From: a virus
Lineage: Duplodnaviria > Heunggongvirae > Uroviricota > Caudoviricetes
Reading direction: 5' to 3' (one strand)
Length of the DNA stretch: 64,000 nt
IMG/VR virus record: IMGVR_UViG_3300028797_000096
Coordinates: 141,860 to 205,859 of that record
Positions 28,277 to 36,532 of the stretch are shown here, piece by piece (the first letter of the stretch is position 1; every line of letters begins with the position of its first letter). The notes below the pieces were generated by a model. The model worked only from the letters and a program-made list of their open reading frames with translations. It was not told where the DNA came from and made no database searches. The translations under genes and the position numbers were made by a program.

Positions 28277-29152
28277 TTAAACGGCTATTTCAAAACTTAC
28301 TTTTTCTCCATATTGATAATTTTCTAATTTAGCCATATCTGGTAAGAAATTAAATACTGTTGCATTTGGATCTAAGATTAAATTAGGCAAAGGAATTTCA
28401 CATTTTTCCCAAGTATTCATATGCTCAGCAATAATAGGAAGATGATTATCATAAATATGACAATTACAAAACTCTAATGTTAATGTACCAACCTGCATAC
28501 CAACTGTTTGTGCCATTAAATGTAATAATAAAGCACCTTGAACCATATCTGATGGTACACCTAAAATAGTATCTGCACTTCTTTGAATTCCTGTTAGATG
28601 TAATTGATTATTAAGATAATTAAATTGCCATGTATGTAGGCATGGTGGTAAACCCATTGTATCCATATGAGCAGGATCCCACGCTGTCATAATCATACGA
28701 CGATCATATGGATTTGTTTTAAGAGTATCTACAATTTGAGAAAGCTGATCAATACCTTGTCCTTTATAACCTGTATCATAGCTTTCATATTGTGCACCAA
28801 AATAACGATAATTCCAACCATAAATATTACCTAAATCTCTCTCTTCTTTCATTCCTTCTTTATTAAAATATGGAACTTTTTTAGGATTACACCAATAATC
28901 CCAATAATTACAACCACGCTCTTTATATATTTGCTTATCTGTAATCCCTTCTAAAAAGCAAGATAATTCACCTTTTACGCCTTTAAAAGGAATTTGTCTA
29001 AAAGTAAGAATAGGAAAGCCTTCGTTTAAATCCCAGGTAAGACTTTTATTTAATCTTACAAGGACTTCGTTGCCTGTACGGCAAGGCGCATTAAAACCTT
29101 CCTTTAAAATTTCTTTAAGCAAATTTAAATATTGTTGGTTGTAAGCATTCAT
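28277..29152 (-). CDS. thyA: Thymidylate-synthase-family enzyme with Asp at the Asn177 position (possible dCMP methyl-/hydroxymethyl-transferase)
   Basis: RTG, FPILT, KGEL, DRRM, LPPC (catalytic Cys), QRSAD and HIYDNH are present. However it reads GVPSD where ThyA has GxPFN, and PCL where ThyA has PCH. Confidence 0.85.
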   Translation of the reverse strand: MNAYNQQYLNLLKEILKEGFNAPCRTGNEVLVRLNKSLTWDLNEGFPILTFRQIPFKGVKGELSCFLEGITDKQIYKERGCNYWDYWCNPKKVPYFNKEGMKEERDLGNIYGWNYRYFGAQYESYDTGYKGQGIDQLSQIVDTLKTNPYDRRMIMTAWDPAHMDTMGLPPCLHTWQFNYLNNQLHLTGIQRSADTILGVPSDMVQGALLLHLMAQTVGMQVGTLTLEFCNCHIYDNHLPIIAEHMNTWEKCEIPLPNLILDPNATVFNFLPDMAKLENYQYGEKVSFEIAV

Positions 29153-29163
29153 ATATAATCCTT

Positions 29164-29538
29164 TTATTTTTTTGCACGATTACATATATCTAGAACTTCA
29201 TACTCTTCCAAATCTCTTATTAAATTACCATCACTATCTACTTCACATACTGATACACTATGATTTTGACCTTTAGTAATATTATTAATAAATGTATGAT
29301 AAGAACTATTAAAATACTGTAAATCATCTAAATCATTCAAATCAAAAGGGATTACTTCATTAGATATAAAAGAACATTTACTTGAACGTACTTTACCTTT
29401 TTCTATATATAAAATTTTATCATAACGACCTTTACCATAAAATAGAAAACTAGGAGTTTCTGTTCTATGATTCATTTCACTACGCTCTAAAGCATTTTTA
29501 TATGCTTTCTCTGTAATTACTTTGTGTAATACTTTCAT
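29164..29538 (-). CDS. Hypothetical protein
   Basis: 124-aa ORF in the operon; no family recognised. Confidence 0.55.
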   Translation of the reverse strand: MKVLHKVITEKAYKNALERSEMNHRTETPSFLFYGKGRYDKILYIEKGKVRSSKCSFISNEVIPFDLNDLDDLQYFNSSYHTFINNITKGQNHSVSVCEVDSDGNLIRDLEEYEVLDICNRAKK

Positions 29539-29541
29539 TTT

Positions 29542-29913
29542 TTAATCCTTCTTTTCATCATTTTCTTTTTTAATATCTTGTAATTCATAATATACTAAAC
29601 ATATCATATTCCAAAGTGCTGCTTGTAAATGAGTAGATGGATGTTCTTCAAAATTAGGATCTTCATCCCAACGATTACCTCTTTTATATTCCATAAAATG
29701 TCGCATTAAAGCAGACTCATATCTTTCTTTACCATGATCTACTAATGTCCATGACCAAGGTTCATATTTTTTTGCACCAACTGTATATCTATTTACTGCC
29801 GTTTCAATAACTTCCCATGGTAATAAAGACCAATTAAGTTTACCTTGATCATATTTAATTCCACCACCTGGTTCTTTTGCAGTAATTATTTCTTTATATT
29901 CTTTCTTAGCCAT
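29542..29913 (-). CDS. DUF5664 / dATP-dGTP diphosphohydrolase-like all-alpha NTP pyrophosphatase
   Basis: GIKYDQGKLNWSLLP...GAKKY..WSW....RYESALMRH...D.....HL.AALWN. Likely start MAKKEY at 29913 after AGGAG (track 29937). Confidence 0.8.
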   Translation of the reverse strand: MAKKEYKEIITAKEPGGGIKYDQGKLNWSLLPWEVIETAVNRYTVGAKKYEPWSWTLVDHGKERYESALMRHFMEYKRGNRWDEDPNFEEHPSTHLQAALWNMICLVYYELQDIKKENDEKKD

Positions 29914-29930
29914 AGTAATTCTCCTTTCTT

Positions 29931-30083
29931 TTAGCAACCGAATTTTTCAAATTGTTCTACACAAACTGATAAACATTGTTCTGGTGTAATTTCAATATAT
30001 CTAGTACCAATATCAACACCAAGCAAAAATACAACAATAGTAAAACAAATACCTAAAATAATTTTTGAAATTATATCTGTCAT
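29931..30083 (-). CDS. Small membrane protein (50 aa; not in ORF track)
   Basis: AAGGAG SD. MTDIISKIILGICFTIVVFLLGVDIGTRYIEITPEQCLSVCVEQFEKFGC*. Confidence 0.65.
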   Translation of the reverse strand: MTDIISKIILGICFTIVVFLLGVDIGTRYIEITPEQCLSVCVEQFEKFGC

Positions 30084-30153
30084 GTTTTAGCTCCTTTATA
30101 TAATATAGAATTTAAACTAGCCAGATAAAAATCAAACAAAATTTCCATTATAT

Positions 30154-30191
30154 AAAAAAAAATATCCTTAGCCCATGACAACTAAGGATAT
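30154..30191 (-). terminator. Rho-independent terminator after dut
   Basis: Minus strand ATATCCTTAG-loop-CTAAGGATAT followed by a T run. Confidence 0.85.
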
Positions 30192-30209
30192 TCACGCACA
30201 GGAACTTTA

Positions 30210-30719
30210 TTATTTTGAACCAGTACTTCCAAAACCACCTGTTGCTCTTTTTGTTTTTGGACCCTGATCATATACTTTATTAGGTACACCTTTTAAAGCT
30301 TCATTTGAGATGTTAATAATAATACCTTGAATAATCTTATCACCTGGATTAATTACAGTTGCCCATTCTTTAAATCCTAACCAACCTAAAAATCCTTTAC
30401 GACGAACTCGAATATCTTCGGTGCCTTTTACTACTTTAAACATATTCAAATGAATTTCACCACGATAACCTGCATCAATTACACAAGCACCAAATACTAA
30501 ACCTTTCTTTAATGCTACACCAGATTTATTCATCATTTGTAAATATTGATTGCTTTTTAATTTAGTTTTAATACCAGATGGAATATTAACTTGTTCACCT
30601 AATCTCAAAATATAAGATTTACCTTCATTCCAATCATTTGGAACGAAAAAGTCAATACCAGCATCTTCTTGGCGATTACCAATTGGATCTTTAACATCCT
30701 TAATTTTTGTATAAATCAT
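30210..30719 (-). CDS. dut: Trimeric dUTPase
   Basis: AGIDF, NKSG, VIDAGYRGEI, KIIQ, RATGGFGSTG (motifs 1-5). Confidence 0.93.
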   Translation of the reverse strand: MIYTKIKDVKDPIGNRQEDAGIDFFVPNDWNEGKSYILRLGEQVNIPSGIKTKLKSNQYLQMMNKSGVALKKGLVFGACVIDAGYRGEIHLNMFKVVKGTEDIRVRRKGFLGWLGFKEWATVINPGDKIIQGIIINISNEALKGVPNKVYDQGPKTKRATGGFGSTGSK

Positions 30720-30795
30720 AAAAGTACTCCTTTGTTATACATTATATAGAATGTTAAATTTGATAACCTTTTTTAAAATAAATTTCCAAAACAGA

Positions 30796-31002
30796 TTAAA
30801 AACCCCAAACCTGTTTTTGAATACGTTGGCGTTTCATTTCATTACGTACTTGTTCTTTTTTACGTTGAACTTTGCGTACATTTGGTTTAATATATCTACT
30901 ACGGCGTTTTTGTTCAAATGAAAAGCCTTCTTTAAGACCTTTACGTTTAATCTTTTTTAATGCTTTTTCAACATTATTATCTACAACCAATACTTTAACC
31001 AT
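30796..31002 (-). CDS. rpsU: Ribosomal protein bS21
   Basis: VKVLVVDNNVEKALKKIKRK..KEG...EQKRRSRYIKPNVRK fits the bS21 consensus (V.V....V..AL...K.....G...E...R..Y.KP). Confidence 0.85.
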   Translation of the reverse strand: MVKVLVVDNNVEKALKKIKRKGLKEGFSFEQKRRSRYIKPNVRKVQRKKEQVRNEMKRQRIQKQVWGF

Positions 31003-31042: not shown

Positions 31043-34000
31043 TTATCCTTCTAACAATTCTTTTTCAATTTCATCTTTATGCTTTTCATAATATTTATAT
31101 TTATTACGAATTACAAACTTATGATCTTTATCTAAACAATCACCATCAGGAATCATCTTTAATAATTCTTCCATAGGTACTTGTGATATTAATCTTGGAG
31201 ATAGTTTTTGACAAGCAGCAAAGCGATTACCTTCACTCCAGTCAAATTTTTTAATATGTCTCTCCAAGGCTTTCATATCAACTTTACCTGTATATTCTTT
31301 AAATGGTTTTATACTTTCTTTAATTCTTGGTAATTCGGCTAAAATAGTATCAACATCTAAGACATTTTTATCATATAAATATAAAGTAGCCATTTCACCA
31401 GTTTTTGGATTCATTTGATCTGGTACTCGGGTATATTTAGATGGTACATTGGCTTGTTCATCACATCCAATAAGCTTATAAGTATACATAATATAATACC
31501 ATATATTCTTATATTGCAAAGCTGTTACAGGATGACTTAATTTAACTACACAATGATATGATTTACTACCCGACCAAACAACACGATACCACAAATCTTT
31601 ATGTTTATTAATTTGTTCTTCTTGTTCTTCTTTAGTCATATCATCACATTCAAATAGTAAATTTTGTGCATATACATTACTATTAGTTGGATATTCGGCT
31701 GTATTATCTTTAAAATTATTTAAAGCTTGTAATACATCTTTTTCTTCGACCTTTTCATAATCTGCTGTATAATATGGACCAAATTCACCACTATTATCAT
31801 CTAATAAATTTCTAGCAAATGCGATATATTGCATAGTATTAATTTCATCCATAGTTAAGGTATTTAAATCATCAACTAATAGCATATGATCATTAAAACC
31901 TGTAATCTTACTTATAGTATGTACTATTTCTGTTTCAGGTTTACCATCTTTATCTAAAACAGGATTACCATTTTCATCTTTCTTAGCAACACTTCTTGCG
32001 TTTTTACTACGACTATAATAAGATTGTGTTCTTGGATCATTAGGAAAACCTACTACAAAAGCTAAACTACGACCATCAACTTTTTTATTAGTTTTACCAT
32101 CATAAATCTCACCAATCGCATGTTTCTTATATAATACAAAATCTCTTGGTTCTACACCATCTAATAACGGCTGATCTGTTACCATATTACATAAAATCTT
32201 AGAAGTAGCTTTACCAAATTTTTCGTTTGATAAATAAAACCCTTTAGACTTTACTTTGCCATTAGTAAACTTACAATAGTAATTATTAACATTATTCTGA
32301 GCTAAAGTATCAATTTCATCAAATTCCAAGACTAATCTCGTTTCTTTTTGCCATTGATCAGCAATAGGCATAAAATCTACCCCTTCTTGGCGTTCAATCA
32401 TAATACCATCAGTGTTGGTTTGAATAATATTAAAACCAGCATCATATAAGCGTTTTACCAAAATAAATAATAGCAATTGTCCATGCACGCAAATTGATGA
32501 ATTAGACCATGTATCATATAATGGATTAAATTCTGATAACATAGCACCAATAGCACCGTTAAGAATCAATTTAAGACCTAAATTAAGAAGTGTTTTTCCT
32601 TCTTTTTTAGCTTGTAAACGTGTATGATATACTTCTTTATATGATTCAGGATTTTTAGCAGCCCCTCTAGACATTAATCCATATTCCACCAATAAAGAAG
32701 GATACAATGAAGCAACGTCCATATTAACTAAATTTTTACTTCTATATCCAATCAAAGCTTGATGTAATCCACCAAATCCAAATTGATATTTATGACCTTC
32801 ATCAAAACCACCAAGTTGTACTTCAAACTTTTCTTTAATATAATCCGGATTATCTTGATTATCTAAATAGAATTGTAAAAGTTTTGTTGGTGTACCATCA
32901 TCATTTACTAATTCTTTCATTGCTAATTCTGGAATAGAATAATATTGTTTCTTGCCATTTACTATTTTATAAGTATTTTGTTTATTAGCTTTAGCATCTT
33001 CACCACACAATAATTTACCTGCAAAAGACGATGATTTATTAATAAGAGTTTTAGCTTTCATCTTATATTCAACAATCATATTCCAGCGAATATCATATGA
33101 TTCTTTTGCAAATGTACGTTTTGGATTATCAGGATCTGGCATAAATAATGCTAAAGTATTATCAACGTCCATTTCGCAATACTTTTCAACATCCAATCTT
33201 TCTTTTGGTGTTAATTTTCTTGGAGTATCAAATGAAACGCTACTATCATAATTACGTTTATTTAATACAGACATAGTAAGCTTTTTTAATGAATTACGAC
33301 GGATATCAAATGGACCATGAAAACTAATATCCCAAGATAAGAAATTAGGATTCCAATTTGATTTTGGCTTCATTTCAGGATATGCAGGTTTAGCTCCATG
33401 TAAAATTAAAGCATCTGAATACTTTTTAACAGTTAGGCTTTGATCAATTAAAAATGGAAAACACATAGCATGACGAATAACTACATCGTCATATGCTGCA
33501 TTATTAAATCCAATTAAAATTTTATTCTTGGCCCAATCATATAATCTTTCTGGATCATTCCAACAGATTAATCTATTTTTACCATCTAAAGTTTTAGCAA
33601 CAAAAAGCCAATCATCATGAAATACTTCAATATCGTATATCCATTCAAATTTTTGTTTAGTATTATAACCTTCTCTTTCGATTTCTTTATCATCTAATCC
33701 TAAAGTTGGTAATACTTCTTTATACCATTTATAATACCATTCTGAAGGTTCAGTACCATTTCTATCACCTGTAATTTCAAATTTACTAGCTTTACCTATA
33801 GTTGTTACTTCTGGTAAATTATTAACATCAGATATAGTTATTTGATCTTTAAATGGAAATAATTGTATTAAATTTTCTACATTATTACCAATTACAGGAA
33901 TAGTAATCAATACTTTTTTTAATATATCATAAAACTTTAACTTTAACTCTTGAGAATCATTTTTACAAATATCATCAGTAGGGCAATACCTTAAAGTAAT

Positions 34001-34714
34001 TTTAGTATATTCATCATAAATACTAAAATATTCAATCTTACGAGTTACTAAATTGGCTTTACCTTCAAAAGTAAAATAGGATAAAATATTGTCTTCATAA
34101 GCTTCTAATAAGAATTGTAGTTTAGTAATAATTTGATTGGTATCGCAATAAGGTGATAAAACTATTTCTTTACTAAATGAAATATTATTTAATTGTTGTA
34201 CAATATTTGTATAATCTTCTGTAATATCAGGTAAAATTACATATGGTACTAATACATCTTTTGGCTTACCTTTTTCGTCTAAAACCAATCTATTTAACCA
34301 TACGGCTGTAATTCTAAGAATCTTTTTATTTTCATTTAGATATAATTCAATTCCACCCATATCCGGTTGTGATAAATAATCTGCTTTAAATGCTTCAAAT
34401 GCTTTTTGACCTACAAATGCAATAACTAACTTATCAGGCTCTAATGTACCTCTTTTAACATAATGCCCTAAAAGATTAAAAAATACATTTCGTGCAAAAG
34501 GTTCATTTGTAGAATCTTTAACATAAGTAATATGTGTTTCTGCTGATTTAAATCTACTTTTAAATACTTCAGTTAAATAATTTATAGCTATAAAAGAATC
34601 AAAGATTTCTTCTTTATCTGTTTCTAAAGGTTGTTCAGCTATTAAAAAAAGCTTAGGTCCTAACTCTGACTCGTATTCTTTCTTACTTCTTTTAATAAAT
34701 GGACAACCCTGCAT
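31043..34714 (-). CDS. Family B DNA polymerase with N-terminal UDG-like domain and C-terminal AEP primase-like domain
   Basis: Exonuclease YDIEVF, GFNNAAYDD, YCEMDV. PolB MDVASLYPS, KLILNG, QTNTDG. C-terminal FECDD, SGSKSYH, D..RVP. N-terminal LFLIAEQP...IAFVGQKA. Likely start is the ATG at 34714 after GGAGG (track TTG 34726). Confidence 0.9.
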   Translation of the reverse strand: MQGCPFIKRSKKEYESELGPKLFLIAEQPLETDKEEIFDSFIAINYLTEVFKSRFKSAETHITYVKDSTNEPFARNVFFNLLGHYVKRGTLEPDKLVIAFVGQKAFEAFKADYLSQPDMGGIELYLNENKKILRITAVWLNRLVLDEKGKPKDVLVPYVILPDITEDYTNIVQQLNNISFSKEIVLSPYCDTNQIITKLQFLLEAYEDNILSYFTFEGKANLVTRKIEYFSIYDEYTKITLRYCPTDDICKNDSQELKLKFYDILKKVLITIPVIGNNVENLIQLFPFKDQITISDVNNLPEVTTIGKASKFEITGDRNGTEPSEWYYKWYKEVLPTLGLDDKEIEREGYNTKQKFEWIYDIEVFHDDWLFVAKTLDGKNRLICWNDPERLYDWAKNKILIGFNNAAYDDVVIRHAMCFPFLIDQSLTVKKYSDALILHGAKPAYPEMKPKSNWNPNFLSWDISFHGPFDIRRNSLKKLTMSVLNKRNYDSSVSFDTPRKLTPKERLDVEKYCEMDVDNTLALFMPDPDNPKRTFAKESYDIRWNMIVEYKMKAKTLINKSSSFAGKLLCGEDAKANKQNTYKIVNGKKQYYSIPELAMKELVNDDGTPTKLLQFYLDNQDNPDYIKEKFEVQLGGFDEGHKYQFGFGGLHQALIGYRSKNLVNMDVASLYPSLLVEYGLMSRGAAKNPESYKEVYHTRLQAKKEGKTLLNLGLKLILNGAIGAMLSEFNPLYDTWSNSSICVHGQLLLFILVKRLYDAGFNIIQTNTDGIMIERQEGVDFMPIADQWQKETRLVLEFDEIDTLAQNNVNNYYCKFTNGKVKSKGFYLSNEKFGKATSKILCNMVTDQPLLDGVEPRDFVLYKKHAIGEIYDGKTNKKVDGRSLAFVVGFPNDPRTQSYYSRSKNARSVAKKDENGNPVLDKDGKPETEIVHTISKITGFNDHMLLVDDLNTLTMDEINTMQYIAFARNLLDDNSGEFGPYYTADYEKVEEKDVLQALNNFKDNTAEYPTNSNVYAQNLLFECDDMTKEEQEEQINKHKDLWYRVVWSGSKSYHCVVKLSHPVTALQYKNIWYYIMYTYKLIGCDEQANVPSKYTRVPDQMNPKTGEMATLYLYDKNVLDVDTILAELPRIKESIKPFKEYTGKVDMKALERHIKKFDWSEGNRFAACQKLSPRLISQVPMEELLKMIPDGDCLDKDHKFVIRNKYKYYEKHKDEIEKELLEG

Positions 34715-34737
34715 TTGTTCCTCCAAATACTTTTAGC

Positions 34738-34800: not shown

Positions 34801-35055
34801 CTAGTCTAAGCCTGCTGCTTTAGAATATGCGTTAAACAATTCTTTTTCTTCAGCGATTTGATCACGATCTTTTTTGCGCTGACGAACTACATAATCAATA
34901 CCTTTTTTAGCAAAACCTTCTGCTTTTGCTTCTTCATAAATTGCCTTTTTACTAGCATTAGCATCAGTAATTGTATCGTTATATACTTCAATTCGTTCAA
35001 CATATTGTAATAAGCGAGCTTTATCTACTTCAACTGTCATAATATTTTCCTCCAT
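34801..35055 (-). CDS. gapR: GapR / DUF2312 family nucleoid-associated protein
   Basis: RLLQYVERIE..N......KKAIYEEAKAEGF..K.I..VVRQRKKD.....EE..LF..Y..AAG matches the DUF2312 consensus. Start may be 35040. Confidence 0.85.
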   Translation of the reverse strand: MEENIMTVEVDKARLLQYVERIEVYNDTITDANASKKAIYEEAKAEGFAKKGIDYVVRQRKKDRDQIAEEKELFNAYSKAAGLD

Positions 35056-35294
35056 TAAATCAAATTAGATACATGAAAATCACAAGGATTACCATTTTTA
35101 AAACTAGTAGCACCCATGTATGATTTTAAAGTACCCATATATTTATGATTTTTTGTATTAAACAATTGAACACTGCCTTGATTTGTAATACTTACACTTA
35201 TATTATTTTCTTTTAATTGATTATAAACTTTAGTGGGTAATATAATATCACAACCACGACGATTCAATTTTGTGTATTTAATAGACCATGCCAT
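35055..35294 (-). CDS. Hypothetical protein
   Basis: AAGGAG SD; ATTCTA motif upstream. Confidence 0.6.
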   Translation of the reverse strand: MAWSIKYTKLNRRGCDIILPTKVYNQLKENNISVSITNQGSVQLFNTKNHKYMGTLKSYMGATSFKNGNPCDFHVSNLI

Positions 35295-35341
35295 TTCGTA
35301 CTCCTTTTTTAATGTTACACATAATTATAGAATAACATAAT

Positions 35342-36532
35342 TTATTCATTTTCGGATGAAGAATTTTCCGTTTCTACAATTTGATCTTCCAAACCGAATT
35401 GCTTAACAGCTTCTTTATAAGGATCTTCTGAATTATAAATAGCTTCAAGATCTACACCGTGCTCGTCTGTAGTAACTTCTGTATCATCTTCTACTTCACC
35501 GTTCATTTCTACATTTTTACCAGTTACATATGATAATACGGTTTCTTTAAAATGTTGCATACGATCTGGATCTTCTTTTAACCAAATCATAGCTTTTTCT
35601 TTACCTTGAGCAATGTTTTCACCTTTATAGCGTACCCATGCACCTGCTTTTTCTAAAATACCAAATTTTACAGCAAGATCAAATACTTCTTCTTCTTGAG
35701 ATACACCTTTACCATATCTAATAATAAATTTAGCCGTACGGAAAGGAGGAGCAACTTTATTTTTCACAACTTTAACTGTAGTTTCAACAGATGTAGCGAC
35801 TTCTTCACCATTAATCTTTTCTGTAGTAGGTGATTGCTTTTTCCAGATTTTCATAATAACAGTACTATAGAATTTTAATGCTTCACCACCTGACATAACA
35901 TCAGTATCACCATACATAACACCAATATTCTTACGAGTCTGTGAAATAAAGAAACACATACAACCAGCATCATAAGCCAATGGAGTAATACGTTTTAAAC
36001 CATCAGACATCATTTTAGCTTGTCTACCAATAAAGTTATCACCCATTTCACCTTCACGCTCTTGCATTGAAATCATAGTAGAAACAGAGTCAAATACAAT
36101 AACTTTAACTAACTTTTGTTTTAATAAAGCTTCAGCCATTTGAAAACATTCTACACCATCATTTGGTTGAGCAAATAATAAGTGCTTCAAATCTACACCT
36201 AAAGCTTGAGCATATCCAAGATCAACCGCGTGTTCTGAATCTAAATATGCACATAAATATCCTTGTTTTTGAGCATTTGCTACTAATTGTAATGCAATAG
36301 TAGATTTACCAGATGATGATTCACCATAAATTGTATTAATTCTTCCCATAGGTAAACCACCAACTCCTAAAGCAACATCAAGATTTAATGAACCAGTAGA
36401 AACTGTATCAATTTTCTTAATTGCTGTAGTGTCATCAAAAGTTAACATTGAATCTTCACCAAATTGTTTATGAATCAATGCCAAAGCAGCTGCCATGTCT
36501 TTATCTAATTGAGTTTTTTCAACTTTAGCCAT
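35342..36532 (-). CDS. recA: RecA recombinase
   Basis: STGSLNLDVALGVGGLP.GR, YGESSSGKST, VFDSVS, GGEALKFYS, KNKVAPPFR. Confidence 0.98.
   Translation of the reverse strand: MAKVEKTQLDKDMAAALALIHKQFGEDSMLTFDDTTAIKKIDTVSTGSLNLDVALGVGGLPMGRINTIYGESSSGKSTIALQLVANAQKQGYLCAYLDSEHAVDLGYAQALGVDLKHLLFAQPNDGVECFQMAEALLKQKLVKVIVFDSVSTMISMQEREGEMGDNFIGRQAKMMSDGLKRITPLAYDAGCMCFFISQTRKNIGVMYGDTDVMSGGEALKFYSTVIMKIWKKQSPTTEKINGEEVATSVETTVKVVKNKVAPPFRTAKFIIRYGKGVSQEEEVFDLAVKFGILEKAGAWVRYKGENIAQGKEKAMIWLKEDPDRMQHFKETVLSYVTGKNVEMNGEVEDDTEVTTDEHGVDLEAIYNSEDPYKEAVKQFGLEDQIVETENSSSENE

Follow-up and report, generated by a model that had tools for sequence, protein, structure and literature searches.

What does a phage replicate with when a single gene carries pieces of two polymerase families and a primase, and which of these pieces are in use? 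The question is raised by the open reading frame (ORF) at 31043..34714 (minus strand, as are all features located below by window position) in the window, the whole 64,000-nucleotide stretch analyzed, which spans positions 141,860 to 205,859 of the IMG/VR tailed-phage record IMGVR_UViG_3300028797_000096. The best explanation, and a probable one, is that a cassette encoding a family B DNA polymerase (PolB) and an archaeo-eukaryotic primase (AEP) took the place of the polymerase half in a UDG-PolA gene (a family A polymerase, PolA, fused to a uracil-DNA glycosylase, UDG), that the AEP became the primase of the phage, and that the UDG and exonuclease remnants, no longer catalytic, persisted as a module maintained by purifying selection.

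The 1223-aa product was compared with 120 listed full-length homologues (53-84% identity), recovered from many samples and from contigs of up to 250 kb; counts below refer either to these homologues (x/120) or to 76 representatives (x/76). Every domain was present in 120/120, and at the sampled loci the upstream recA and GapR-like genes and the downstream dUTPase and ThyA genes were kept. Because all domains recur in 120 homologues with conserved neighbors, the fusion is, on this comparative evidence, genuine and has become fixed within a single clade of uncultured jumbo phages. Among cultured phages the whole architecture was not found, no record covering 80% of the query, and a search for near-length homologues with the N-terminal profile returned only fragments from the same family. 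Pfam gave no match for the whole protein and only faint AEP matches for the family, and a sequence search of the PDB gave only weak PolII and PrimPol/CAPP matches, with none for the N-terminus. The initial annotation, made from the sequence alone, had proposed one chain of five domains (UDG-like, degenerate exonuclease, 3'-5' exonuclease, PolB and AEP). All five were supported by folds and profiles, with the terminal ones modeling as UDG and AEP, and the count rose to six parts with a conserved helical domain at residues 1136-1223. The annotated lack of an intein also agreed with the alignments, in which the 1223-aa ORF had no intein-sized insert relative to its homologues.

The core of the chain is a PolB, comprising a proofreading exonuclease (aa 353-560; 33035..33658), with conserved ExoIII residues Y512-D516, and a polymerase domain (aa 561-975; 31790..33034) delimited by profile and alignment columns, with motif A around D666 (32699-32719), motif B with K715/N719 and motif C reading NTDG (32405-32416). 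Residues D361, E363, D409, D666, K715, N719 and D769 were invariant in the 76 representatives, in keeping with the annotated PolB motifs A, B and C and with a second exonuclease that is predicted to be active. Residues 352-974 matched phrog_1252 (crAss-like/HelPrimPolB-type PolB; E 5e-94), and the ratio of nonsynonymous to synonymous substitutions (dN/dS) in the core was 0.04-0.12; all dN/dS values given here derive from two 84% relatives only, the ratio being saturated against distant ones. Other matches were PolBs of Leuconostoc, Paenibacillus and crAss-like phages, and the group with these PolBs includes HelPrimPolB (PMC7544198). Two deviations were observed in the motifs: an Ile for the usual Tyr of motif B (32549-32572) in 119/120, and an Asn in place of the first Asp of motif C. 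Family A polymerase (PF00476) had no match in the genome, PolA was found in none of the three near-complete genomes compared (G000, this one, 93% complete; G003, 95%; and G004, 98%), and DnaE was not found in G000. Because PolA and DnaE genes were not found, the ORF is predicted to encode the replicative DNA polymerase of the phage. Related PolBs carry other C-terminal fusions, which by eye were an Erf/recombinase-like tail in many and a DnaE-C-terminus-like one in some (among P0011, P0016, P0018 and many 820-930-aa matches), and P0041 combines a Prim-Pol with a VirE helicase; this PolB group fuses readily.

The residues preceding the core have a different ancestry. They form a UDG-fold domain of family 4/5-like type (aa 1-185; 34160..34714), a dead and truncated PolA-type 3'-5' exonuclease (aa 186-306; 33797..34159) and a linker with a conserved helix (aa 307-352; 33659..33796), inside which the model and alignment place the junction between PolA- and PolB-derived parts. 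In the N-terminal model (pLDDT 92.7), residues 1-183 superposed on the family 4 UDG of T. maritima (1l9g; Z 9.7, root-mean-square deviation, rmsd, 3.9, 142 residues aligned), with Z 9.5 to family 5 and 9.2 to UdgX, and residues 188-306 had the DnaQ/PolA-exonuclease fold (Z 8.1 to EXD2, 6.6 to Klenow). The best structural match to both domains together was the UDG-PolA of phiLo (Foldseek E 3.5e-5), and the ESM atlas neighbors were viral clusters of UDG plus PolA exonuclease. The N-terminal family profile gave 16.5-25 bits with the PolA of phage QdP_Psa3 and with three metagenomic relatives, whereas the highest score among 1000 shuffles was 6.3 bits and other PolAs did not exceed 1.5; comparison with the QdP_Psa3-type PolA by hhalign (probability 75, E 2.5e-5) gave an alignment collinear across ExoI and ExoII, in which the catalytic acids were lost and the ExoIII part was deleted. 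Computationally, the first 306 residues are assigned as the leftover of a QdP_Psa3-type UDG-PolA lineage. A split of the QdP_Psa3-type PolA was seen at L040:10001-12199 and L041:8842-12291, where the UDG-exonuclease part (732-752 aa) is a separate ORF; the PolA catalytic part lies downstream in L041 and none was annotated nearby in L040.

Both leftover domains are apparently catalytically dead, judging from their alignment columns. The position of the UDG motif-B His (161; H178 in phiLo) was Leu in 120/120, and that of the motif-A Glu (E27; E53 in phiLo) was variable, with Glu in 46/120, a pattern that departs from the motifs of an active UDG; the motif-B His loss is already shared by the QdP_Psa3 PolA. 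A UDG lacking most of its iron-sulfur (Fe-S) cysteines had been annotated, and aa 1-185 indeed contained no conserved Cys and none of the four Fe-S cysteines as a set; the N-terminal CPF motif offered as evidence for it was not conserved (C4 was Cys in 17/76). The decayed DEDD-like segment was recovered as the first exonuclease domain, whose ExoI Asp was variable (N/E/D), whose ExoI Glu was Lys in 108/120, whose ExoII Asp was hydrophobic or Thr, and whose ExoIII segment was missing, leaving the DEDD acidic set incomplete. The module nevertheless had a dN/dS of 0.20-0.31 (0.26-0.31 in the UDG domain), indicating purifying selection. The relic was most likely retained as a template-binding/processivity or helicase-docking module, and for N4-like enzymes, in which the UDG domain is dead, a processivity role has been suggested (PMC10201439).

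A different use of the domain, as an active base reader or glycosylase that checks the template ahead of the polymerase for deoxyuridine (dU) or deaminated forms of modified cytosine, is compatible with the priming model and was the function suggested by the initial annotation, but we consider it unlikely. The putative pocket positions D33, F38, S40, T60 and H61 were nearly invariant (D33, S40 and T60 strictly so), and this conservation, together with the dN/dS of the domain, speaks for base reading, as do the dU excision by the non-canonical UDG domain of YerA41 (PMC13697223), the lack of a stand-alone UDG match in G003 and G004, and the ThyA homologue with the dCMP-type Asp that most members carry. 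On the other side stand the motif-B and motif-A substitutions, the first of which is also present in the QdP_Psa3 PolA, the precedent of dead domains in N4-like UDG-PolAs (PMC10201439), and a relative (L017/L022; contig 33% complete) that keeps the UDG-like domain despite a canonical dUMP-type ThyA. G000 also encodes a separate, intact UDG-family protein of 166 aa (C1:123486-123986, equivalent to L008:15487-15987; PF03167 E 2e-9, with MUG/family-6-like motifs). Sensing of modified or deaminated cytosine was, in sum, poorly supported.

An Asp at the dUMP-specifying Asn of ThyA marks dCMP-acting enzymes. The ThyA homologue of the window (28277-29152) had this Asp, as did 7 distinct relatives' loci, and L017/L022 had a canonical ThyA, which suggests a dCMP-acting homologue and modified cytosine, with the gene swapped in and out at one slot.

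How synthesis is primed turns on the C-terminal quarter of the chain, formed by an AEP catalytic domain of RepB'/S-2L-like type (aa 976-1135; 31310..31789) and a helical domain with invariant G1162/R1164/Q1169 (aa 1136-1223; 31046..31309). In the model of residues 975-1223 (pLDDT 89.8), the AEP aligned with the S-2L PrimPol (6zp9; Z 13.4, rmsd 3.2, 146 residues) and with RepB' (Z 11.5), and the top 16 structural matches were all AEPs (Foldseek E 6e-7). The catalytic residues of the S-2L PrimPol are E85, D87, T112, K115, H118, D146 and R157 (PMC8065100); their counterparts E1022, D1024, S1048, K/R1051, H1054, D1085 (codon at 31460-31462) and R1096 were kept in 120/120 at nearly the same spacing, so that AEP motifs I (D/ExD), II (SxxKxxH) and III (D) and the conserved Arg were present in every homologue. 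The dN/dS of the domain was 0.15-0.18. The motif strings FECDD (31640-31654) and SGSKSYH (31553-31573) had been located to within 1-2 nt in the first reading; its motif I needed correction, the acids being E1022-x-D1024 and the last D of FECDD being Tyr in most relatives. The alignment with RepB' extended across the catalytic and helical domains, at an rmsd of 15 over both. The helical tail had no Pfam match and had an atlas neighbor with PriCT_1 in 22% of its members; from its model it is likely a priming accessory of the helix-bundle/PriCT type, a kind of domain that RepB' and GP55 require for priming (PMC8567376, PMC12205980).

Searches for a conventional primase were negative. With phrog_47 (DnaG), nothing was detected in G003 or G004, and in G000 the sole match was a 61-aa zinc-ribbon ORF; with the QdP_Psa3 DnaG as query, no primase was detected in any of the three. 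Both searches recovered DnaG in QdP_Psa3 and phiXF1, the PolA-encoding phages used as controls. In the genome, DnaB (C1:66293-67702) adjoins a UvsW-like helicase, and the order helicase-DnaB-DnaG of QdP_Psa3 is matched here by helicase-DnaB-76-aa ORF; a primase next to DnaB was also absent in two relatives. Among polymerase-encoding double-stranded DNA viruses, 98% have a primase, either AEP or DnaG (PMC4889955). Since such viruses nearly always have a primase and no DnaG was detected, the fused AEP is very probably the obvious replacement for it, as far as absence in incomplete genomes can indicate. The self-priming PolB of the initial annotation was upheld as a prediction by the full AEP catalytic set, the helical domain and the DnaG searches with positive controls. 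The 5'-3' exonuclease of the PolA relatives was not found in G000, G003 or G004; DNA primers had been considered from this absence, an idea dropped since G003 and G004, though not G000, encode RNase H1. No clamp loader matched in five genomes including the PolA controls, a result that is not specific to the family.

A narrower role for the AEP is about as doubtful as base reading, namely that it primes special sites only, at an origin like RepB' or after lesions like PrimPol, with Okazaki fragments primed by host DnaG or replication driven by the leading strand or recombination. Its closest structures are indeed those of the origin-specific RepB' (PMC8567376) and the S-2L PrimPol, and the RecA, UvsW-like helicase and SbcCD encoded in the genome suit recombination-dependent replication. 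However, DnaG is phage-encoded in relatives with this DnaB/UvsW module, so the lineage did not depend on that of the host, and the loss of DnaG coincides with the gain of the AEP. Less credible still, and in our view quite improbable, is a secondary polymerase for gap filling or lesion bypass that does no priming. The S-2L PrimPol polymerizes, and priming by it was not detected on standard templates (PMC8065100), LigD, PrimPolC and CAPP were among the fold matches, and the helical tail lacks a Pfam match; against this, the tail with its invariant G, R and Q is kept in the family and in small-phage PolB-AEPs, and no other primase was detectable. An assembly chimera or read-through artefact, for which only the absence of the architecture from cultured phages could be invoked, has practically no chance of being correct, being already refuted by 120 independent homologues (53-84% identical) with all domains and conserved neighbors.

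The probable source of each half was sought among relatives. By capsid, terminase and DnaB, QdP_Psa3 and phiXF1 ranked first or near first (QdP_Psa3 first or second), and these nearest cultured relatives encode DnaG and a UDG-PolA. Three proteins of 804-838 aa (P0007-P0009) consist of a PolB with the same AEP and helical tail and without the UDG and exonuclease, and two of them adjoin a superfamily 3 (SF3) helicase gene in small phage contigs. In the PolB-core tree, which is unrooted and built from a subset of matches, P0007-P0009 and the family occupied one side of a branch (support 100/99). We infer the following order of events: a PolB-AEP cassette from smaller phages would have been inserted into a UDG-PolA gene immediately behind ExoII and displaced the family A polymerase half, after which DnaG would have become dispensable and its gene lost. 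At the fork, the separately encoded DnaB would unwind the template; the AEP would make a short primer on the exposed single strand by two-metal chemistry at E1022/D1024/D1085 while the helical domain holds the first nucleotides; and the primer would pass, in cis or between neighboring molecules, to the PolB site for extension and proofreading. The wider proposal, on which our confidence is evenly divided, is an uncharacterized kind of replisome, in which, at a superfamily 4 (SF4) DnaB fork, an AEP attached to the tail of the replicative PolB supplies every primer, so that the polymerase starts Okazaki fragments by itself with no DnaG, clamp loader or phage 5'-3' exonuclease, the UDG and exonuclease of the displaced PolA are reused for processivity, helicase docking or template checking, and a stable chimera of families A and B records an intragenic polymerase swap.

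Several points weigh against the replacement of a PolA half by a PolB-primase cassette and the priming role given to the AEP. The three genomes are 93-98% complete, and a primase could lie in the missing part or be diverged; the Pfam Toprim models were insensitive (Toprim_3 missed both control phages), so Toprim negatives carry little weight. AEP with an SF4 helicase is a minority pairing (19%; PMC4889955), and the S-2L precedent described above is a polymerase for which priming was not detected. The UDG residues were assigned from motif spacing and overall fold. In marker proteins, identity to the nearest cultured phages is just 28-34%, and the PolB-core tree joins long branches. No PolA was found at the recA-GapR-dut slot, where searches anchored on RecA and DnaB gave same-group members only, and because no PolA occupies the identical locus the direction of the swap rests on outgroup phages of about 30% identity.

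The gene itself begins with an ATG at 34714, ends with a stop codon at 31043-31045 and has no internal stops; this start is favored over the TTG at 34726 because a Shine-Dalgarno GGAGG (34720..34724) lies 5 nt upstream. Its conserved upstream neighbors (34801..36532) are recA, a small ORF and a GapR-like DNA-binding gene (34801-35055), and downstream lies a nucleotide-metabolism block (28277..31002) of bS21 (30796-31002), dUTPase, a dGTP_diPhyd_N gene and the ThyA homologue with its Asn-to-Asp change, with bS21 and the GapR-like gene flanking the polymerase. In the same block lie iscS, iscU, clpP, glyA, a CofE-like gene and a split nrdD. The virus record comprises 231,566 bp (29% GC, 15 tRNAs), with head and tail genes of myovirus type, and it encodes a gp32-like single-stranded DNA-binding protein at C1:21411-22217. 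The runs that fully contain the sequence were bovine gut metagenomes only, a possible source, and no RNA dataset containing it was listed. The ends of the record (C1:1-1388 and 230,200-231,566) share a tail-fibre-like sequence at 85-88% identity, which is not an exact terminal repeat, and the record, with a variable region at the join, may be close to closure. Seven radical-SAM-like genes, recognized by motif alone, stand in tandem at C1:210937-218010.

If the proposal is correct, a phage can exchange both the family of its replicative polymerase and the class of its primase at once, with the gene unmoved and the old N-terminal module kept. With this one gene the function of dead UDG domains on polymerases, whether processivity or base checking, could be examined, a question left by the N4-like enzymes. 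The protein is also predicted to be a natural proofreading polymerase that needs no primer, and hence a candidate for use in whole-genome amplification. A literature search, incomplete in coverage, returned no paper on this architecture. Replacement of PolA by PolB within a lineage, sometimes with the primase, is documented in Caudoviricetes for whole genes, in a study that does not mention UDG, fusion or remnants (PMC11348598); here, in contrast, the swap was apparently intragenic and left a conserved PolA-PolB chimera. The UDG-PolAs (the SP15-like phiLo and YerA41, SPO1-like and N4-like enzymes, QdP_Psa3 and phiXF1) share an N-terminal UDG fold that precedes a PolA-type exonuclease (PMC13697223, PMC10201439), and the N4-like ones also a degenerate UDG, whereas the present protein has lost the PolA polymerase domain, retains a dead, shortened PolA exonuclease and has a family B domain as its working polymerase. 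RepB' of RSF1010 and the S-2L PrimPol (PrimPol-PV1 supergroup) resemble the AEP in fold and in the helical domain after the catalytic domain, and S-2L in catalytic set and spacing (PMC8567376, PMC8065100), although they occur alone or joined to domains of helicase type rather than to PolB, and the S-2L steric-gate Tyr has no clearly invariant counterpart here. The closest functional parallel is GP55 of Lactococcus phage 1706, for which de novo priming and extension have been demonstrated (PMC12205980), and which likewise joins an AEP primase, a helical accessory domain and a proofreading PolB in one chain, the PolB cores being related (30.5 bits). The order in GP55 is SF3 helicase-AEP-helical-PolB (PMC12205980, PMC7544198, PMC4889955), whereas here the AEP is C-terminal, of RepB'/S-2L type with an ExD motif and unrelated in sequence to the AEP of GP55 (0.1 bits), the helicase is a separate SF4 DnaB outside the chain, and a PolA-derived N-terminus is present that GP55 lacks, placing the protein outside HelPrimPolB. 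Because GP55 already demonstrates a primase-PolB fusion the novelty is limited: fusions of a primase with a polymerase are known, as are polymerase swaps, and this gene combines the two in a new way without adding a new principle.

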